Shown piece by piece: positions 169 through 24,730 of a DNA stretch of 35,092 nucleotides (the stretch's first letter is position 1; each line of letters begins with the position of its first letter). This DNA is from a bacterium. Lineage in GTDB: Bacteria; Patescibacteriota; Saccharimonadia; CAILAD01; JAUYJX01. The position numbers and the translations under genes were made by a program. The notes beneath the pieces are model-generated. The model ran no database searches and was not told the origin of the DNA. It saw only the letters and a list, made by a program, of their open reading frames with translations. The DNA is taken from contig JAUYJX010000010.1 in assembly GCA_030699245.1 (NCBI GenBank), forward strand, positions 1 through 35,092. The letters run 5' to 3'.

Positions 169-699
169 TTATTGCAGCTCTATAGTAGCGCCGGCAGCCT
201 CCAGAGCTTTCTTGGCCTGCTCAGCTTCTTCTTTTGGCACATTTTCTTTAACAGTCTTTGGGGCACCATCAACTAAGGCTTTGCTTTCAGCAAGGCCTAG
301 TCCTGAAATCTCGCGAACAGCTTTAATTACTTCGATCTTCTTATCGCCAGGTTCACTTAAGGTAATTGTATAAGCGCTCTTTTCTTCAGCAGCCTCACCT
401 TCTTCACCGCCAGCTATCGCAGCTACTCCTACTGCCGCCGGAGCAGCTGCTGATACTCCGAAGTGGTCCTCTAAGACCTTAACTAGCTCTGAGAGTTCCA
501 GTACAGAAAGCTTTTCAATCTGTTCAACCAAATCTTTGAACTTGCCGCTTATCTTGGGTTTTTCTTCCTTTTTTTCTTTTTTTGCTTCAGTTTCTGGCTT
601 TGGCTCTTCTTTCTTCTCTTCCTTGGTAACCGAAGTTTCCTTGATCTTAGCCTGCTCTTCATTTTCCTGTTTAATCTCTTCTATTTTTTCTTCTGCCAT
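169..699 (-). CDS. rplL: 50S ribosomal protein L7/L12 with ~50-aa Lys/Glu-rich N-terminal extension
   Basis: Residues ~52-176 ([36 protein letters not shown]...[56 protein letters not shown]) are canonical L7/L12. ATG 699 is preceded by AAGGAG. TAA stop. Confidence 0.9.
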
Positions 700-715: not shown

Positions 716-1240
716 TTAGCTTTTTTGTCCTTTAATTGCATTTAATGCATAAACCAGATTTCGTAAATTACCGCCCAGTACATTGACAAAGCCAGAAAGC
801 GGTGCGGCAATAGTGCCGGTAACTTTGGCTAGCAGCTCTTCATGTGAAGGCAGACTTGCCAATTCTCTGATTCCGTTAGCGCTGAGTATTTTTGCTTCAT
901 TAGTAATTGCACTAATAATTTCCAATGACCCGTGTTCTTTGGCATAGGTTGCTATGATCTTAGCAGCAGTTATTTCGTCATCACCAAAAGCAATTGCCAT
1001 TGGTCCGTCAAATATCTTGCTGTCAATACCGCTCAAATCCGTTTTTTTGATGGCTAATTTAATCAAAGTGTTTTTTACAACCTTATAGCTTATACCTGCT
1101 TCGCGTAATCTAGTGCGCAGCTCATTCATTTCTTCAGCGCTTAGCCCCCGGTAATCAGTCAAAACAGAAAGTTTCGCATTTTTAAATTCAGAGGCGATCT
1201 GGGAAACAATTTCTTCTTTTTTACTCTTTGATATAGCCAT
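716..1240 (-). CDS. rplJ: 50S ribosomal protein L10
   Basis: MAISKSKKEEIVSQIASEFKNAKLSVLTDYRGLSAEEMNELRTRLREAG is a typical L10 N-terminus. ATG at 1240 preferred over the TTG at 1279 that opens the tracked ORF. Upstream of rplL. Confidence 0.85.
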   Translation of the reverse strand: MAISKSKKEEIVSQIASEFKNAKLSVLTDYRGLSAEEMNELRTRLREAGISYKVVKNTLIKLAIKKTDLSGIDSKIFDGPMAIAFGDDEITAAKIIATYAKEHGSLEIISAITNEAKILSANGIRELASLPSHEELLAKVTGTIAAPLSGFVNVLGGNLRNLVYALNAIKGQKS

Positions 1241-1357
1241 AAATAAAAAATCTTTGGGTTTACTTAACACCAAAGACAAATAAAAACTTTATACCTCGGC
1301 AGCTTTTTTAATTCCTTCGACAAGCTCAGGATCGCTGCTGTCTTTGGCAACTAAAAA

Positions 1358-1386
1358 ATAATAGCAAATTCTTACTTAAGTGTCAA
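1358..1386 (-). promoter_or_regulatory. sigma70-type promoter for rplJ-rplL
   Basis: TTGACA (plus 1381..1386), 17 nt, TATTAT (1358..1363) on the minus strand. About 110-nt leader before rplJ, a possible L10 leader whose structure was not verified. Confidence 0.5.
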
Positions 1387-1387
1387 T

Positions 1388-1421
1388 AAAAGGAAAAACC
1401 CCGGGGCAATAAGCCCCGGGG
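1388..1421 (-). terminator. rho-independent terminator closing the tmk-thyX unit
   Basis: Minus-strand RNA: CCCCGGGG-cuuauug-CCCCGGGG (8-bp all-GC stem, 1399..1421) followed by UUUUUCCUUUU. Lies 22 nt after the thyX-like stop. Confidence 0.65.
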
Positions 1422-1442
1422 CCATTCTGAAATGAACACAGG

Positions 1443-3146
1443 TTAATCCATTCCAGAACTATTAGTTTTAGCAGCACGGGCTGCTCGTTTTATGGAAAGT
1501 CGGGTTTCAGCGGCTTCCCGCTCAAGGTTGTATTCCTGATAATCGACATAGCTCATACATTCGCCGATCACCGGGTCCACCTCGCACACTAGTTGATGCA
1601 TTTGCTGGCCAATTCGCCGATAGCTGGGATGACCCTGCTGACTGGTCCTCAACTCCAGCATGAACATCAGTGCACGGGCATTGATTTCCATACTGACTCG
1701 CATTCGGTAAGCCAGGCAAACCGCATATTGCGCAGCCTCGGGGTGGTCTGACTCAAGTAGTTCATACAGGCTTCGAGATTTCTCCATGGCCTGCTGATAG
1801 AGCTCGAGCTGCTCCATGTCCTCGATGAACGGTGAAACCGTCCAACCAAAGTATGGTGTAACCTTACCCCAATCGATCGTCAACATACGATGCCGTTTCC
1901 AGTCTCGCATGATCCCGAAATCAATCAGCAAATTGAAGCTGTAACGGGCATGTTCGAACGCTCGGCCTGGCTTCCAACGTCGGTTTCCTTCTGAACTTCC
2001 GAGGCTACCACGCTTCCCGCAATAAGTGTGGATTAGCTCAGCACGTTCTTCGGGACTCATGGCTCGCGCTAGTTCGTCGCAATCGATCTGCATGCGTCCG
2101 AGAGTGTCAAACTCATACAGAATAGCGCCCGCAACTCGAACTTCGTTGTTTGGATCGGCATAAGCGAGATCTACAACATTTTCTGCCGGCAAGGTAATAC
2201 TGGTTCCCGACAGCAACGGGTTCTCCTCTTCGATTTGCCTTACCAGCTGACGGGCCTGTTCACGTGTATCGCGAAAGTACTGGACCCATGGCACTCCTTT
2301 TACCGGATCATCGATCTGATTGAAGAATGCTGGTGCTGCATCAGGGTGACGCAATTCCTGCAGAGCCATTTGCCCGATTGTACGTGCTTCCGCAAGTTCC
2401 GAACTCAACAGGCGGCGCAGCATGTTAGCTGCTGCTTGTGCGCTACCAAAGAAACCAACATTACTGACAATTCCGGCTGGCAACATTGTGCGGATGGTAT
2501 CGAAGGCCTTAGCTCGAATGGTTGTCCGATAAGCCCGATCATCACCGTCGAAATTCTCACGAGGGTTGAGTATCTCGAAACGTGCAACGGCGCGCTCGAA
2601 CATCTGCTGGTACGAACCAAAGAGCTCATCCATAGTTCGAACGTACTCATCTGCATTCGGACCATCCAGGATTTCGGGGTCGCGGCGATAGCGAAAACGA
2701 CCATCCGCCAACGGTACAGAATAATCAATATAACGTGTTGACTGTTCCAGATAGGCCGCCAATCGTCCCCACTCTATCTCGTTGATCACGATATTGCTAG
2801 ATTGTTCGAACACCAGATGCACGCCGCCGAGTTGAGTAACTGATTCATCATCAAACTCGTCGAACACCCTATGATAAAGCTGTTCAGCTCGCTTGGTTGA
2901 GACTCTGCTGGCTTCTGATTTATCTCCGCTGAGTCCCTCGTAGAACTCATCCAGAAAAAGCCGACGTGTACTCTTGGTGGTACGTGAGTAACGTGCGAAA
3001 AGTGCTCCGCTCACCACCTGTGGTAGATTGATGATACAGAATACTGGACAATCCAAATTGGTGAAATAGCGGTTCAGAATGGCAGTTTCGTCCTCCGTCC
3101 ACTCCTCCACCACGTAGGTTGACCATTCATTTCCTTGAGTTGTCAT
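1443..3146 (-). CDS. thyX: FAD-dependent thymidylate synthase ThyX-like protein, long (about double-length) form
   Basis: ThyX-type signature pieces: ARYSRTTKSTRR and EQSTRYIDY in the N-terminal half, WKRHRM in the C-terminal half, LELRTSQQGHPSYRRIGQQM near the C-terminus. Its ATG overlaps the tmk TGA stop (ATGA at 3143..3146). About 50 % G+C by hand count. Confidence 0.6.
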   Translation of the reverse strand: MTTQGNEWSTYVVEEWTEDETAILNRYFTNLDCPVFCIINLPQVVSGALFARYSRTTKSTRRLFLDEFYEGLSGDKSEASRVSTKRAEQLYHRVFDEFDDESVTQLGGVHLVFEQSSNIVINEIEWGRLAAYLEQSTRYIDYSVPLADGRFRYRRDPEILDGPNADEYVRTMDELFGSYQQMFERAVARFEILNPRENFDGDDRAYRTTIRAKAFDTIRTMLPAGIVSNVGFFGSAQAAANMLRRLLSSELAEARTIGQMALQELRHPDAAPAFFNQIDDPVKGVPWVQYFRDTREQARQLVRQIEEENPLLSGTSITLPAENVVDLAYADPNNEVRVAGAILYEFDTLGRMQIDCDELARAMSPEERAELIHTYCGKRGSLGSSEGNRRWKPGRAFEHARYSFNLLIDFGIMRDWKRHRMLTIDWGKVTPYFGWTVSPFIEDMEQLELYQQAMEKSRSLYELLESDHPEAAQYAVCLAYRMRVSMEINARALMFMLELRTSQQGHPSYRRIGQQMHQLVCEVDPVIGECMSYVDYQEYNLEREAAETRLSIKRAARAAKTNSSGMD

Positions 3147-3799
3147 TTCCCTACCTCCTCTATCATAGGCTCAATGTGAGCCCACACGGACCGTTCAACT
3201 TCTTCTATAGAAAGTGAGCCATCCAAAAGCATGACCTCATCAAGCTCTTCTGCCCACTTTCGATATGACTTGTTAACCAAGCGTCGTTCCTGTTCGCCAA
3301 TCGACTCAAATCGATCACTCTGCCCACCACGTTGTGCCAGTCTTTGTTGGGATTGCTCATAGCTAATGTCCAGAACGAGGGTGATATCAGCTATGGCAAC
3401 TTGGCTGGCTAACTGGCAAGCTCCAAGAAACTGAGTGATCTTGTCAGGCTTATCGGGTTCGAGCAAACCACGCATTTCGCCCTGATACACATAGGTACTT
3501 AAAGAACTACGGTCAGAAAGCACCCAGCTTCCCTGCTCCAGGAGCGGTTTCACCACCAATTCCAGAACCTGTGCCCGAGCCATCAGAAAACCAAATAGCT
3601 CACCGAGTGGAGTAATGGCGGATTCACTAAACTTCAGGATTTCCCTGAGCTGTTCAGCAATTGGATCGCCACCAGGTTCTCGCACGATTTCACACGTGAT
3701 TCCTTCTCGAACAAGTCGTTTTAACAAACGCTTGACTTGCTCGCCCTTACCAGCTCCTTCATCACCTTCGAGGACAATATAGCGTCCACGATTAGACAT
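3143..3799 (-). CDS. tmk: dTMP (thymidylate) kinase with atypical Walker A (GAGKGE)
   Basis: YIVLEGDEGAGKGEQ P-loop, LSDRSSLSTYVYQG (DRxxxS..YQ motif) and a lid-like AQRGGQSDRFES. ATG 3799 is preceded by AAAGGTGA. The tracked ORF starts at a GTG 9 nt upstream (3808). Confidence 0.8.
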   Translation of the reverse strand: MSNRGRYIVLEGDEGAGKGEQVKRLLKRLVREGITCEIVREPGGDPIAEQLREILKFSESAITPLGELFGFLMARAQVLELVVKPLLEQGSWVLSDRSSLSTYVYQGEMRGLLEPDKPDKITQFLGACQLASQVAIADITLVLDISYEQSQQRLAQRGGQSDRFESIGEQERRLVNKSYRKWAEELDEVMLLDGSLSIEEVERSVWAHIEPMIEEVGK

Positions 3800-3843
3800 A
3801 ACATTCACCTTTCAAGGTAAACTTGCCGCCTCTAGTCTCAAAA

Positions 3844-3852
3844 ATTATAGCA
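3844..3852 (-). promoter_or_regulatory. extended -10 promoter element (TGCTATAAT) upstream of tmk
   Basis: Minus-strand TGCTATAAT about 45 nt upstream of ATG 3799. No clear -35. Confidence 0.4.
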
Positions 3853-3894
3853 TATAAAAAACTAGATTACTTTTTATATTATGTGGTTTATAAA

Positions 3895-4578
3895 TTAACC
3901 CCTTTTGCGTTCGTAGAGTTTTGGGAGCATCTGTTCTGGTACCCAATTTTTAGTCAGTTGGCGTAGCTCAGTTCCTTTTTGATAACGACCCTCTAAACCA
4001 TAGTGACGATCACTTTGTCCGGCATGGAAAAAAATAATCTGTCCAACACATTCTCCTACTGGTATGGGTACATGGATTTTGTTCTTATTACGAACTTCCA
4101 TCGTCCAACGATTAAAATAGCCGATATCTCCCCAACCGGCATCATCGCAGGTTGAAATATTAACTCTACCTATTGAAGAACGAGCGTGCATCATGGTTGT
4201 AGCATGATGCACCGCTCCAATAAATTCTTGGGTGTGGCTTAAAATACATTCACCTGGTTTTAACACAATAATTTTCTGTTTTGCGGGAATATTTTTCCAA
4301 AGTTTGCCACCTCGGTGTTCTTCACACCATTCTTTATTGGTCACAGCGCGTAATGGTCCTTTATAGTACCGCTCGACATCTTTCTTATCATAGGGATTAA
4401 AATCTGTTTGAAAGTCATCAGCCTGACAAACATAAAACTGCTCACCAAGTGTCACATCATAGCTACTGGTATTTAATTGACTATCATGGAATGGTGAAAT
4501 AATAATCTGCCCATTCTTGAGAGCTTCTCGTATCTCGTGATCTGAAAATACTCCTGTTTTCATCTGTTGGTGTATCAT
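3895..4578 (-). CDS. dcd: dCTP deaminase / dUTPase-superfamily protein
   Basis: N-terminus FSDHEIREALKNGQIIISPF..SSYDVTLG and core ARSSIGRVNISTCDDAGWGDIGYFNRWTMEVRN...GECVGQIIFF match the dCTP deaminase fold pattern. Carries a ~50-aa insertion relative to typical ~190-aa enzymes. Confidence 0.75.
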   Translation of the reverse strand: MIHQQMKTGVFSDHEIREALKNGQIIISPFHDSQLNTSSYDVTLGEQFYVCQADDFQTDFNPYDKKDVERYYKGPLRAVTNKEWCEEHRGGKLWKNIPAKQKIIVLKPGECILSHTQEFIGAVHHATTMMHARSSIGRVNISTCDDAGWGDIGYFNRWTMEVRNKNKIHVPIPVGECVGQIIFFHAGQSDRHYGLEGRYQKGTELRQLTKNWVPEQMLPKLYERKRG

Positions 4579-4584
4579 CTTTTA

Positions 4585-4593
4585 ATACTAACA
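4585..4593 (-). promoter_or_regulatory. extended -10-like element (TGTTAGTAT) 6 nt upstream of the dcd ATG (leaderless layout)
   Basis: Minus-strand TGTTAGTAT-TAAAAG-ATG. No SD. Confidence 0.35.
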
Positions 4594-4648
4594 AACCTTA
4601 ATTGAATTACCAAATACGCTTTTTATAACAGTATAGCTGGCCACCCTC

Positions 4649-5110
4649 TTAAATTGAAGGGTGGCCAGCCAAATTGACCGATTTTGCTGCGTTTAGTGAG
4701 GCAAGAATAGTTAATACCTGCTTCACTGCCGGGCTTTCTGGGTCCAAACCATGCTGCTGTCGATCGCGCATCCTAAAGGCAATTGATCCTAAGGGTGCTT
4801 TCTGACCCAAGTCCACCGAATAAACATTGGCGATCACCGGGATACTTCGTTCAGCCATATAGGCTTCCCATTCCTCGATAAATTGCGGGTGTTTACGTGT
4901 AGCGTCCTCTGGAAGTGGGCGGCGATTAACAAGAATTGAATAGTCGGCATCTGCCACCATCAGATCCATATTGGGATTACTAAGTTTGCCGGGAAGATCG
5001 CCTATTACTAATTCACTTGGATCGCTTGCAAATTCATCAACACGACGCTCTATTGTTTGTAACCATGCATGTCTTTTCTTCTTCCTCTTATCCCATGGTT
5101 TATGGCCCAA
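4649..5110 (-). CDS. hypothetical protein; tracked ORF opens at TTG 5110, and the frame continues upstream to an SD+ATG at 5254 across one in-frame TGA (5180..5182)
   Basis: 153-aa ORF with no recognisable motifs. No SD before TTG 5110. AGGAGG-N6-ATG at 5254 lies in the same frame, and an extended -10 sits upstream. See findings. Confidence 0.5.
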   Translation of the reverse strand: MGHKPWDKRKKKRHAWLQTIERRVDEFASDPSELVIGDLPGKLSNPNMDLMVADADYSILVNRRPLPEDATRKHPQFIEEWEAYMAERSIPVIANVYSVDLGQKAPLGSIAFRMRDRQQHGLDPESPAVKQVLTILASLNAAKSVNLAGHPSI

Positions 5111-5300
5111 TAGACAGGCATGAGTATCAGAGTAAACATCAATTTCGTGTAATCCGACATCCCAACCATCGGATTGCGCTCACTTATATAGCGAACACGA
5201 AAAAACACTCTTGTTAGCTCCACGAACTCCACCCACAACAATATGGGTCGACATTTACTGCCTCCTGATGGTCAAGTATCTACCTCTGTCGGTCTCAATT

Positions 5301-5309
5301 ATTATAGCA
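5301..5309 (-). promoter_or_regulatory. extended -10 promoter (TGCTATAAT) upstream of the SD+ATG at 5254
   Basis: Minus-strand TTGTAT-16 nt-TATAAT with TG extension, followed downstream by AGGAGG-N6-ATG. Confidence 0.4.
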
Positions 5310-5343
5310 CGAGCAAAAACCGATACAATGTTAGTAATTTAAC

Positions 5344-5352
5344 TGTTATAAT
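5344..5352 (+). promoter_or_regulatory. extended -10 promoter (TGTTATAAT) 6 nt upstream of ATG 5359 (leaderless layout)
   Basis: TGTTATAAT-TAAATT-ATG. No SD. Confidence 0.45.
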
Positions 5353-5358
5353 TAAATT

Positions 5359-5937
5359 ATGAGCAGTAGACCAGTTGTGCTAGTAGATATAGATGATACG
5401 TTAGCTGACACCCAGGTTAAGATGTTGGAATATGTGAATAGAAACGGCGATAAAACTTATCAATACCACAAACTGACACGCGAATTTAGAGACGGCAAGA
5501 TAGCCGATTATGAAAAGTTAGTTCAAGAATATTTGAGTCGCCCGGATCTTGTAGAGGAAATTTTGCCGTATGATAATACACTCGAAGCTATGCAGAGATT
5601 AGAAACGGGTGGCTATGAAATCCATATTGTTTCTACCCGCAAGGAGCCTTTACATAACTCAACTATCAAATGGCTAAGTCGTCACGGTTTTGATCAACAC
5701 ATAAAAAAGGTTCATCCTCGTCCTTCAGAAAAGATAGGACACAAATTCAAACAAGATACGGCTAATTTGGTAAATGCAGTAGCGGCCTTCGATGACACGC
5801 TAAGAGTAGTTATAGCAATGGCTGAAATAGTTCCTGTTGTTTATTTAATAGATAAACCTTGGAACCAAGGTAAGCTTCCTAGAAACATTGTTAGGGTTTC
5901 AAGTTTTGTTGAAGCTGTTGACTTATTTTTAGTTTAG
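5359..5937 (+). CDS. HAD-superfamily phosphatase, 5'(3')-deoxyribonucleotidase-like
   Basis: HAD motif I VVLVDIDDTLAD (DxDxT), motif II HIVSTRK, motif IV AAFDDT. Size (192 aa) and layout resemble NT5C-type nucleotidases. Its stop overlaps the rplA stop by 3-4 nt (convergent). Confidence 0.6.
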   Translation: MSSRPVVLVDIDDTLADTQVKMLEYVNRNGDKTYQYHKLTREFRDGKIADYEKLVQEYLSRPDLVEEILPYDNTLEAMQRLETGGYEIHIVSTRKEPLHNSTIKWLSRHGFDQHIKKVHPRPSEKIGHKFKQDTANLVNAVAAFDDTLRVVIAMAEIVPVVYLIDKPWNQGKLPRNIVRVSSFVEAVDLFLV

Positions 5938-6887
5938 AACTTTAGAGCATTTGCCACATCAACCTTAACCGATGGACTCATTGTTGAACTTAAGTAAATT
6001 GATTTGATATAAGTGGTCTTAATGGTTGACGGTCTTGCTTGTGAAACTGCTTTGAGTAAAGCTCTGGCGTTAGCCAGTAAATCACTAGCTTTAAAACTCT
6101 TTTTACCGATCAATAAATGTAAAATGCCATATGAATCGTTACGAAATTCTATCCTACCAGACTTGATTTCTTTGACAATTTTTACTGGATCAACCGTAAC
6201 GGTGCCGCTCTTGGGTGAAGGCATCAGCCCTTTTGGTCCCAAAACCTTAGCATAACGACCAAGCTTAACCATTTGCTCGGGAGTAGAAACTAAAACATCA
6301 AAATCAAGTTTGGCTTTAGAAATAGCTGTCAGCAAATCACCTTCATCGCAGATGTCAGCCCCTGCGGCTTTTAAGTCTTTGGTTAACTTCTCGTTAGCTA
6401 ATACTGCTACTTTGACTTTTTTACCAATGCCTTCCGGCATAATTACACTGCCGCGAATGTTCTGATCAGCCTGCTTTGGATTAATGCCAAGATTGATGTG
6501 TATTTCTAAACTAGCATCAAATTTTACATTACTTAGCTTCTTTATCATCCCGATAGCTTCGGACAAATCGTAATATTTTTGTCTATCGATTTCTTTTAGC
6601 GCCTGGCGATAAGATTTGGAATGTGCTTTGAGTAGATTTTTAACGGTAATGACCTTTTTTTTCGACTGTTCAGGTGGCGCTAAAGTTTTGCGCTGCTGCT
6701 TGATTTCTTTTTCTTTGATTTTGGCAATGGCTTTTTTTGATCTTTTACCGGCTTTGGCTAGTGGCGTTTTTTTTGGTTTGGTTTCTGGTTTAACGGTTTT
6801 TTTCTCGGGTTTTTCTAGTTTCTTTTTTTCAATCTTTTTCTCTGATTCCTTTACCTTATTGATTTTGACTTCATCTTTTTTTGCCAT
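5934..6887 (-). CDS. rplA: 50S ribosomal protein L1 with ~86-aa Lys-rich N-terminal extension
   Basis: From ~residue 88 (HSKSYRQALKEIDRQKYYDLSEAIGMIKK...GPKGLMPSPKSGTVT) it is canonical L1. ATG 6887 is preceded by AAGGAG. The tracked ORF begins 30 nt further upstream without an SD. Confidence 0.9.
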   Translation of the reverse strand: MAKKDEVKINKVKESEKKIEKKKLEKPEKKTVKPETKPKKTPLAKAGKRSKKAIAKIKEKEIKQQRKTLAPPEQSKKKVITVKNLLKAHSKSYRQALKEIDRQKYYDLSEAIGMIKKLSNVKFDASLEIHINLGINPKQADQNIRGSVIMPEGIGKKVKVAVLANEKLTKDLKAAGADICDEGDLLTAISKAKLDFDVLVSTPEQMVKLGRYAKVLGPKGLMPSPKSGTVTVDPVKIVKEIKSGRIEFRNDSYGILHLLIGKKSFKASDLLANARALLKAVSQARPSTIKTTYIKSIYLSSTMSPSVKVDVANALKF

Positions 6888-6940
6888 CTTGACTCCTTCG
6901 TGGTACTGGCCCCACAACTAATGTGTCCCACTTTAAACTG

Positions 6941-7369
6941 TTATTCTACTTCTATGCCCATTGACCGGGCTGTACCGGCAATAATTTTCTTAGCAGCTTC
7001 AATATCATTGGCATTCAAATCTTTCATCTTAACCTTGGCTATCTCGGCTAACTGCGCTGGAGTTAATTTACCAACCTTTTCTTTATTTGGCACACCCGAA
7101 CCCTTCTCTATCTTTAGAGCTTTTCTAATAAGACTGGTGGTCGGCTCGGATTTAATGATAAAAGTAAATGATTTATCTTCATAAATAGTGATTATTGTCG
7201 GAGTTGGCACACCTTTTAAATCCTTGGTCTGCTCATTAAAGGTGTTAATAAAATCCATCATATTCACACCGTGTTGACCTAATGTAGAGCCAACCGGGGG
7301 AGCAGGAGTAGCACCGCCTGCAGGGATTACTAATTTTAATTTTGCTATTACTTTTTTGCCTTTACTCAT
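6941..7369 (-). CDS. rplK: 50S ribosomal protein L11
   Basis: [37 protein letters not shown] is the L11 signature region. Position between nusG and rplA. Confidence 0.95.
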
Positions 7370-24284: not shown

Positions 24285-24361
24285 TTCTTCTTGGCTGGAA
24301 GCCATGAGCGAACGAAGTGAGCCTGCCTGCCGGTAGGCAGGCTTGACGTAGGATGGCAGGG
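24285..24361. repeat. direct repeat copy B, immediately 3' of and overlapping the end of the intact tRNA-Trp
   Basis: Same 57-nt core (24285..24341), a 12-nt spacer instead of 5 nt, then the genuine tRNA-Trp 3' end. Weaker similarity extends further distally (24257..24285 vs 21478..21531). Confidence 0.8.
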
Positions 24362-24429
24362 GTGGCAGGAATCGAACCCGCGACCTTCGGTTTTGGAGAC
24401 CGACGCTCTACCGACTGAGCTACACCCCT
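24354..24429 (-). tRNA. tRNA-Trp (anticodon CCA), 3' CCA encoded
   Basis: Hand-folded cloverleaf: AGGGGTG/CACCCCT acceptor, GCTC..GAGC D-arm, TCGGT-CTCCAAA-ACCGA anticodon arm, GCGGG-TTCGATT-CCTGC T-arm, discriminator G plus CCA. 76 nt. Confidence 0.9.
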
Positions 24430-24487
24430 TCATCTAACTTTGTAGACAAATCTTGGTTTGTTGATTTGGTAAGAATCTGATCAGGAA

Positions 24488-24562
<75 letters not shown>

Positions 24563-24565
24563 CCA

Positions 24566-24652
24566 TGGTGCAGGGAGAGGGATTCGAACCCCCGAAGGCT
24601 TAAAGCCGCCTGATTTACAGTCAGGTGCGTTTGGCCGCTTCGCTATCCCTGC
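24566..24652 (-). tRNA. tRNA-Tyr (anticodon GTA) with long variable arm, 3' CCA encoded
   Basis: GCAGGGA/TCCCTGC acceptor, CCTGA-CTGTAAA-TCAGG anticodon arm, GGCTT..AAGCC variable arm, GGGGG-TTCGAAT-CCCTC T-arm. 87 nt. Only 3 nt from the next tRNA. Confidence 0.9.
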
Positions 24653-24655
24653 TCG

Positions 24656-24730
24656 TGGAGCCAACGGTGGGAATCGAACCCACAACCTACGGTTTACAAA
24701 ACCGTTGCTCTGCCATTAAGCTACGTTGGC
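24656..24730 (-). tRNA. tRNA-Thr (anticodon TGT), 3' CCA encoded
   Basis: GCCAACG/CGTTGGC acceptor, ACGGT-TTTGTAA-ACCGT anticodon arm, GTGGG-TTCGATT-CCCAC T-arm. 75 nt. Confidence 0.9.

Follow-up and report, generated by a model that had tools for sequence, protein, structure and literature searches.

A thymidylate gene set between rplA and rplJ in a Saccharibacterium, probably an inherited slot with modular replacement of its contents

In a genome of the Saccharimonadia (Patescibacteriota; assembly GCA_030699245.1), a 4.6-kb block of deoxypyrimidine genes lies between the ribosomal-protein genes rplA and rplJ. We analysed it in a window of 35,092 nt, which covers positions 1-35,092 of contig JAUYJX010000010.1. 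The minus strand reads secE-nusG-rplK-rplA, then the insert, then rplJ-rplL; the insert consists of a minus-strand 606-nt frame, dcd, tmk and thyX, together with one plus-strand gene for an NT5C-like deoxyribonucleotidase. Taken as a whole, the evidence makes it probable that the slot was inherited, that its contents have been replaced in modules, that thyX and tmk came from a GC-richer donor, and that the set serves an ordinary thymidylate pathway. A first-pass annotation had described the block as an island newly wedged between rplA and rplJ. Its gene order, coordinates and separation of about 4.6 kb match the list of open reading frames (ORFs), and its search for integrases, transposases and flanking repeats was borne out as negative by ORFs, Pfam and a repeat search. 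The new insertion was not borne out, as the same genes stand at the same site in the relatives L168, L002, L004, L005, L178 and L180.

Results

The slot is occupied in relatives

Relatives were looked up with ThyX homologues as seeds, and L168 with an NT5C homologue. All six relatives reached in this way carry, between rplA and rplJ, a ThyX of clade 1, to which the window protein belongs. The interval holds DCD-Tmk-ThyX and serine hydroxymethyltransferase (SHMT) in L002 and L004, ThyX-SHMT in L005 and L180, and DCD-Tmk-ThyX in L178, the source of the deepest ThyX (P0026); L168 combines a convergent NT5C gene with DCD, Tmk, ThyX, SHMT and Crp. Wider synteny is common to the window and its relatives and includes UbiA-glycosyltransferase, nusG-rplK-rplA, dnaX-dnaB, GtrA and PMT_2. 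For each gene of the insert, relatives have a counterpart at the corresponding position, including NT5C (L168, L170, L173 and L175) and the 606-nt frame, which belongs to a P-loop NTPase family (L166, L173 and L175). Where NT5C converges on rplA, its neighbours are a ThyA set in L170 and L173, and a ThyX set in L168 and L175. Relatives with the same genes at the same site and native composition, which the first-pass annotation had named as evidence against its island, were largely found, although composition is native in some of them only.

A metagenome scan seeded on rplJ gave 80 loci, in 26 of which both rplA and rplJ are visible. A thymidylate synthase, either ThyA or Thy1, lies between the two genes in 20 of these 26 loci; in the other six, rplA is next to rplJ or the gap has no convincing gene. 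Seven loci hold CTP_transf_like, dCMP deaminase, DHFR-HIT and ThyA, usually with SHMT, and seven from more distant genomes hold a short ThyA with dCMP deaminase. Three loci combine DCD and SHMT with a long ThyX from a second lineage, which shares about 34% identity with the window ThyX. The remaining types were each seen once: DCD-Tmk with a 381-residue Thy1, DCD with another Thy1 of 571 residues, and a MtrA-ThyA-PterinBD fusion with Tmk. No locus examined has thyA and thyX together. In this lineage the spacer between rplA and rplJ is filled by 1.4-6.6 kb of nucleotide-metabolism genes.

Several occupants have features of their own. The ThyA-type cassettes (L091 4963-8282; L166 4551-11000; L170; L173) share a recurring CTP_transf_like companion, a dCMP deaminase extended N-terminally by about 130 residues, and a DHFR that is either joined to a HIT domain or adjacent to one; the L166 cassette also holds an HD_4 protein and an APH-type kinase. 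The fusion protein in the slot of L164 (7669-9189) has 506 residues, and its PterinBD part is DUF4346. The 381-residue Thy1 in the slot of L121 (2711-3856) carries an NTH...SRNSASSR motif, and the 571-residue Thy1 in the slot of L132 (7448-9163) belongs to a further lineage. A conserved ORF of about 140-150 residues with no Pfam match lies in the gap between SHMT and rplJ (L002 14116-14535, L102, L103 and L107), and L002 has two more small GC-rich ORFs there.

Slot contents turn over between close relatives

On a tree of rplA+rplJ+rplL the cassette types are interleaved, with four unrelated Thy1 lineages plus ThyA types. L002, with a ThyX set, is 84% identical in these ribosomal proteins to L091, which has the ThyA-DHFR-dCMP deaminase set; L004 and L093 are 90% identical, while their ThyX lineages share only about 34% identity; and L121, with the 381-residue Thy1, is sister to L123, with a ThyA set. 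Identities also differ between genes of one locus. Among L168, L002 and L004, pairwise values are 80-85% for ThyX, 65-70% for rplJ, 54-64% for rplA, 60-69% for SHMT and 35-43% for Tmk. L002 and L004 share 85% in ThyX against 68% in ribosomal proteins, and for L002 and L005 the relation is reversed (ribosomal proteins 77%, ThyX 61%). Since the ThyX identities conflict with those of the ribosomal proteins, replacement inside the slot is indicated, and the sequence comparisons make exchange of a thyX(-tmk) module among Saccharibacteria, within a conserved slot, the most likely course.

The closest proteins to the window ThyX are 54-66% identical to it and form one clade, of which one member (P0122) is from Candidatus Saccharibacteria. 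Long ThyX proteins from Acidimicrobiia come next, at about 45% identity; in a neighbour-joining tree they are the sister group of the saccharibacterial clade, which does not nest among them. A scan of contigs for the ThyX clade gave 80 Acidimicrobiia loci; among the matches listed, none has dcd, tmk or glyA next to thyX, which means that the cassette did not arrive from Acidimicrobiia en bloc. A phage origin was also considered and rejected; the viral scan gave one contig with a long ThyX, at 40% identity.

The enzymes belong to thymidylate-pathway families

All families named in the first-pass annotation (ThyX, dTMP kinase, dCTP deaminase and NT5C/HAD) score above the Pfam gathering cut-offs. 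ThyX matches Thy1 (PF02511) in two stretches with 106.9 bits (gathering cut-off 24.8), and its N-terminal half alone reaches 38 bits. The C-terminal half aligns with ThyX of T. maritima and retains FEH and RHR (residues 418-420), not SxRY; the N-terminal half retains E-Q-S-T-R-Y (134-139), not RHR. These half-motifs (FEH, RHR and EQSTRY) are invariant across the 15-member ThyX clade, in whose alignment more than 150 residues are invariant. Such an arrangement is compatible with a pseudo-tetramer in which active sites would be shared between halves. An AlphaFold model (15 sequences) had a predicted local distance difference test score (pLDDT) of 59, poor at residues 1-140 and better in the C-terminal half, and was used for fold only. 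Its top Foldseek matches were the ThyX structures of M. tuberculosis and T. maritima, with probability 1.0 and template-modelling (TM) scores, by target, of 0.56-0.70. PDB sequence searches with the full-length protein and with the clade profile gave no matches; by halves, the C-terminal half gave weak ThyX matches and the N-terminal half none. BLASTP of one half against the other detected no significant similarity, so that the duplication is visible through the Pfam profile only.

Tmk is above both cut-offs applied (PF02223, 89.8 against 27 bits; TIGR00041, 106 against 83.25). A GKG Walker A is found among slot Tmks in the window and in L004 only (GSGKGTQ; the two Tmks are 57% identical), and the others have GK[ST]T. 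Dcd scores 108.1 bits against 27 for DCD (PF22769) and falls narrowly under the cut-off of TIGR02274 (87.8 against 92.8). Among solved structures, 4xjc, 1ogh (labelled dUMP-forming) and 2qxx match it best. The ARSSIGR and TMEVRN motifs of Dcd carry the catalytic Ser/Arg loop and Glu and line up with RSSVGR and TLELFN in 4xjc. Dcd is possibly of the bifunctional, dUMP-forming type, in which case a separate dUTPase would not be needed. Its nearest homologues, at 50-67% identity, are from Saccharibacteria/Patescibacteria. The NT5C-like protein matches PF06941 with 33.0 bits (cut-off 24.8) over profile positions 1-109 of 180, its translation reads VDIDDT at the HAD motif I (DxDxT), and only 15 homologues were found. 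The family assignments support the route first proposed for the block, from dCTP through dUTP/dUMP and dTMP to dTDP, plus a nucleotidase.

Among the window ORFs scanned with Pfam there is no second thymidylate synthase and no glyA/SHMT, which most relatives have.

Composition differs between the genes of the insert

Composition was compared with the 32 other genes of the window, whose G+C at third codon positions (GC3) is 0.310 +/- 0.037 and to which the z scores refer. The first-pass annotation had called thyX and tmk compositionally foreign and dcd and the HAD gene intermediate. The shift is real for thyX (GC3 0.509, z = 5.4; codon-usage distance z = 3.7) and tmk (0.443, z = 3.6; codon-usage distance z = 4.0). 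GC3 is native in dcd (0.316, z = 0.1) and the NT5C/HAD gene (0.321, z = 0.3), whose codon-usage distances are mildly raised (z = 2.5 and 2.3), and the 606-nt P-loop frame is marginal (0.386, z = 2.1). In thyX, G+C is high at the first and second codon positions (GC1 and GC2) as well.

Among the comparison loci, slot genes have native composition in L175 and L093/L095 and nearly native composition in L005 and L180, and GC-rich members exist within the lineage (L173, L170 and L123). The discordant identities agree with continued passage of a GC-rich allele between Saccharibacteria; another possible cause of the GC3 excess is a constraint peculiar to thyX that acts on its synonymous sites.

A probably decayed P-loop NTPase gene is part of the insert

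The ORF of the insert that the first-pass annotation had left without a family (4649-5254) does form one frame, whose ATG at 5254 follows a strong Shine-Dalgarno sequence, but it is probably not an intact gene. Codon 25 is an in-frame TGA (5180-5182), and the Walker A reads GANKS where the family has GxGKS, with Asn in place of a Gly that is invariant or nearly so in the family alignment. This genome reads TGA as a true stop: tmk terminates on one at its conserved C-terminus, for which reason an alternative code with TGA as Gly was rejected for codon 25. An exhaustive HMMER search gave 42 representative homologues or clusters of about 180-220 residues, to which the window sequence aligns from their residue ~27 onward; the 24 codons ahead of the TGA therefore correspond to the N-terminus of the family. 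The stop codon and the altered Walker A make it probable that the frame is a pseudogene, its intact counterparts being uncharacterised P-loop NTPases of the SIMIBI class.

The family is marked by a Walker A GGxxGxGKST, by HE(I/L)DxxSDTH and by GDLPG, a Walker B of DxxG type. No Pfam family exceeded its cut-off for the ORF or its homologues, and PHROGs gave nothing significant for the ORF. A model of the homologue P0253 (pLDDT 93.7) has a SIMIBI-class fold and resembles SRP54/FtsY, HypB, ApbC/Mrp, the CTP-synthase N-domain and MeaB. In every informative context, that is, in the window, L166 (6001-6600), L173 (3492-4076) and L175 (7001-7669), the family sits in the slot between rplA and rplJ. 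Three of these contexts (the window, L173 and L175) have NT5C next to the P-loop gene, and the two genes of L175 overlap within a single operon. A SIMIBI P-loop NTPase that travels with NT5C may have a hitherto unrecognised part in deoxypyrimidine metabolism. We found no description of this family in the literature.

Borders and transcription signals of the slot

The features of the slot and its borders are collected in Table 1. The genes for L1 and the NT5C-like protein are convergent, and their stop codons overlap by 3 nt. The stop of tmk and the start of thyX share an ATGA, a translational coupling that the first-pass annotation had also read. No flanking direct or inverted repeats were found in the insert and its flanks (900-7200), no tRNA gene adjoins in the same range, and the interval has no integrase or transposase ORF. 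An identical thyX-rplJ-rplL junction is present on an independent short Logan contig (run SRR13727534) from another assembly.

Table 1. Slot genes, border genes and candidate signals in the window
Feature	Position	Strand	Basis
rplA (ribosomal protein L1), upstream border of slot	5934..6917	-	Pfam Ribosomal_L1, 178.4 bits, residues 126-315 of 327; stop at 5934
HAD/NT5C-like 5'(3')-deoxyribonucleotidase	5359..5937	+	Pfam NT5C, 33.0 bits
Extended -10 box TGTTATAAT, 6 nt ahead of HAD start codon	5344..5352	+	sequence reading; function inferred
Extended -10 box TGCTATAAT	5301-5309	-	sequence reading
Promoter element TGCTATAATAATTGAGAC, upstream of P-loop gene	5292..5309	-	motif comparison
P-loop NTPase, probable pseudogene, 606 nt	4649..5254	-	frame reading and homologues
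Hairpin across P-loop ORF stop, 19-nt arms, 84% complementary; possible terminator	4629..4676	-	inverted-repeat search
TGTTATAAA box ahead of dcd, after the hairpin	4622-4630	-	sequence reading; function inferred
dcd, dCTP deaminase family	3895..4578	-	Pfam DCD, 108.1 bits
Extended -10 box TGCTATAAT	3844-3852	-	sequence reading
Promoter element TGCTATAATTTTTGAGAC, upstream of tmk	3835..3852	-	motif comparison
tmk, thymidylate kinase	3143..3799	-	Pfam Thymidylate_kin, 89.8 bits; TIGR00041, 106
thyX, flavin-dependent thymidylate synthase, tandem Thy1, 567 residues	1443..3146	-	Pfam Thy1, 106.9 bits
Intrinsic terminator closing tmk-thyX unit, 11-bp stem, 9 G-C pairs, T tail	1397..1423	-	hairpin reading
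rplJ promoter TTGACA-17-TATTAT with TG extension, 11/12 matches, abuts terminator	1358-1386	-	sequence reading
L10 leader, downstream border of slot	1236-1365	-	Rfam RF00557, 50.3 bits (gathering score 44)
rplJ	716-1240	-	Pfam Ribosomal_L10
rplL	169-699	-	Pfam Ribosomal_L12

The three extended -10 boxes and the GC hairpin terminator beside a near-consensus rplJ promoter, all proposed in the first-pass annotation, are present in the sequence. The 18-nt elements ahead of tmk and of the P-loop gene agree at 16 of 18 positions (89%). Their pattern, TGCTATAAT(W)(W)TTGAGAC, reaches beyond the -10 box, and the rplJ promoter has a weaker version of it (1349-1366, minus strand). Given the distance from the box to its start codon, the transcript of the HAD gene is likely leaderless or near-leaderless. 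The L10 leader ahead of rplJ is kept in all eight relatives scanned.

L1 has a Lys/Glu-rich N-terminal extension of about 110-125 residues, and L1 of relatives is also long (about 270-360 residues); L7/L12 has an N-terminal extension of about 50 residues. Elsewhere in the window, four closely spaced tRNA genes (Thr-TGT, Tyr-GTA, Thr-GGT and Trp-CCA; 24354-24730, minus strand) account for a local G+C peak near 24.3-24.9 kb.

Discussion

We propose that the boundary between rplK-rplA and L10-leader-rplJ-rplL has long served Saccharibacteria as a slot for deoxypyrimidine and thymidylate genes, and that the slot and its occupancy were inherited rather than created by a new insertion. The window genome would hold the ThyX version, with Dcd, Tmk, a tandem-domain ThyX, a divergent NT5C-like gene and a decayed P-loop copy. 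Dcd is predicted to convert dCTP to dUTP, or straight to dUMP if bifunctional; ThyX would then make dTMP from dUMP with methylene-tetrahydrofolate and reduced flavin, and Tmk would phosphorylate dTMP to dTDP, while the nucleotidase may trim or recycle pools of deoxynucleoside monophosphates. Transcription of the insert would start from extended -10 promoters of native style. Downstream of thyX, the terminator would insulate the autoregulated rplJL operon under its L10 leader. The content of the slot appears to turn over, thyX/dcd/tmk for thyA/folA/dCMP deaminase and one thyX lineage for another. The thyX-tmk pair of the window would stem from a replacement whose donor was richer in GC and was probably itself a Saccharibacterium; taken as a family, the long ThyX proteins appear closest to those of Acidimicrobiia. 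A more far-reaching version of this proposal, in which the boundary is a cassette-exchange site where equivalent sets are swapped and glyA is retained, presumably by homologous recombination in the ribosomal flanks, where a SIMIBI NTPase is housed and where a GC-rich thyX of actinobacterial affinity circulates, may be right, and we put it forward tentatively.

A number of observations weigh against this proposal. The comparison loci are all metagenome-assembled contigs, the more distant ones were counted without taxonomic affiliation, and the trees are neighbour-joining trees without support values. ThyX stays under the NCBIfam equivalog cut-off (TIGR02170; 46.9 against 87.9 bits), with a match to residues 447-527 only, and the canonical RHR...SxRY motif is divided between its halves. 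The Walker A of Tmk, GAGKGEQ, has no Ser/Thr after the lysine and fails GxxxxGK[ST]. Neither glyA nor dut lies within the 35-kb window, which therefore does not account for the supply of methylene-tetrahydrofolate or, should Dcd be monofunctional, of dUMP. Finally, GC3 of clade-1 thyX exceeds that of its flanks in all seven carriers (the window, L002, L004, L168, L178, L005 and L180), by +0.05 to about +0.4, despite protein identities of 46-85%. Part of the compositional signal could thus be gene-specific and not a mark of recent transfer.

This last observation bears on two other explanations. Because clade-1 thyX is enriched in GC3 in all its carriers, the G+C anomaly of the window alone is weak evidence for a recent event, and it would be expected under vertical inheritance without exchange, where the G+C of thyX and tmk reflects a constraint of the genes themselves (amino-acid composition, mRNA structure or selection at synonymous sites) and the alternation of sets reflects differential loss from an ancestral thyA+thyX cluster. 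The excess at any divergence, the high GC1 and GC2 of thyX, and the position of every clade-1 ThyX looked up, including the deepest, in the same slot all agree with such a history. We nevertheless regard it as unlikely, given that identities are discordant in both directions between L002 and its two partners, that Tmks at the same position have diverged so far among L168, L002 and L004, that the ribosomal tree intermixes unrelated Thy1 lineages with ThyA types, and that no examined locus combines thyA with thyX. A recent island, in which the whole 4.6-kb block came from a phage or an actinobacterial host and split an adjacent rplA-rplJ pair, is slightly less credible still. The deviation of thyX and tmk in GC3 and codon usage speaks for it, as do the next-nearest ThyX relatives, which are from high-GC Acidimicrobiia (loci of 66% GC), and the known hosts of cultured Saccharibacteria are Actinomycetota. 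However, the site is occupied by these genes in divergent relatives too, with native composition in some; dcd and NT5C are native in GC3, the homologues of dcd are from Saccharibacteria/Patescibacteria, and the NT5C homologues looked up occupy the same slot. The saccharibacterial ThyX clade is sister to the Acidimicrobiia proteins and only 45% identical to them, and the transfer is therefore not recent; the thyX genes of Acidimicrobiia are unlinked to the companion genes in the 80 loci, among the matches listed; the viral scan offered a single contig; and integrase genes, repeats and an adjacent tRNA were absent from 900-7200. Of the horizontally acquired dTTP module first suggested for this block, the part that stands is thyX-tmk, which looks laterally replaced; the whole-block island does not, with dcd and NT5C native and the site shared by relatives.

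The first-pass annotation had also kept open a non-canonical pyrimidine or DNA-modification pathway, in which ThyX, Tmk and Dcd would make and phosphorylate a modified deoxypyrimidine instead of dTMP. The atypical traits of these enzymes are what such a role would draw on: the sub-threshold equivalog score and split motifs of ThyX, the GKG Walker A of Tmk, the score of Dcd just under its equivalog cut-off, and the presence of PolB among the structural matches of ThyX. PolB, a ThyX homologue, methylates UMP. The strongest argument for canonical thymidylate synthesis is that the slot of close relatives holds thyA-folA-dCMP deaminase-glyA, or this ThyX with glyA, the context of ordinary dTMP synthesis. 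In addition, thousands of long-ThyX members are annotated as FAD-dependent thymidylate synthase, a second thymidylate synthase is absent from the window ORFs scanned, and the interval lacks the glycosyl-, amino- or hydroxymethyl-transferases typical of phage hypermodification clusters. A modification pathway thus seems very improbable here, the least credible of the explanations considered, and an inherited slot with exchanged thymidylate modules is the reading we retain.

For annotation, the block would best be treated as an ordinary and probably essential locus that supplies dTMP/dTDP in an epibiont with a reduced genome, and not as an island or a modification system. Saccharibacteria depend on their hosts for most precursors, and the route by which a strain makes dTMP could therefore matter for its sensitivity to antifolates or ThyX inhibitors; it could also inform its nucleotide dependence on the host. 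Of modest wider interest is the repeatedly sampled in-place displacement of thyA and thyX, with companion enzymes, at one fixed site. The small P-loop NTPase family deserves flagging, its sole known context being the slot between rplA and rplJ. No description of a fixed rplA-rplJ slot was found in the literature on thymidylate synthase, ThyX or dCTP deaminase of Saccharibacteria and the candidate phyla radiation.

Among known systems, the ThyX-dependent dTTP route (Dcd, [Dut], ThyX, Tmk) is resembled in the enzyme families, which come in pathway order, in the coupling of tmk to thyX, and in the pairing of the relatives' set with glyA, as expected for a consumer of methylene-tetrahydrofolate. 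The window departs from this route in its 567-residue double Thy1 with complementary half-motifs, in the GKG Walker A of Tmk, in the absence of dut and glyA from the window, and in the location of the genes between two ribosomal-protein operons. The long ThyX of Acidimicrobiia/Actinomycetota (about 535-570 residues) shares about 45% identity with the window protein over 93-98% of its length, along with RRLFLDEF, GNRRWKPG and the two-domain architecture. In contrast to it, the saccharibacterial proteins form their own clade, most of them with an insert of 30-40 residues that the window ThyX lacks, and the thyX of Acidimicrobiia is, among the matches listed, unlinked to dcd, tmk or glyA.

That thyA and thyX are extensively transferred between lineages and undergo non-homologous displacement is established (Stern et al. 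2010, PMC2826268, whose text does not mention synteny or genomic context), and acquisition of thyA by Patescibacteria has been reported (PMC12455944). The slot likewise shows alternation among related genomes with signs of lateral transfer. Unlike the displacement described in PMC2826268, the slot appears to swap its genes in place, at a single chromosomal position between conserved ribosomal-protein genes, and whole companion sets change with the synthase, DHFR and dCMP deaminase on one side and Dcd and Tmk on the other. With the rplKAJL cluster and its L10 leader (RF00557), the lineage of the window shares the order nusG-rplK-rplA ... L10 leader-rplJ-rplL, and differs in having a gene-filled spacer where that cluster has a short intergenic region between rplA and rplJ.

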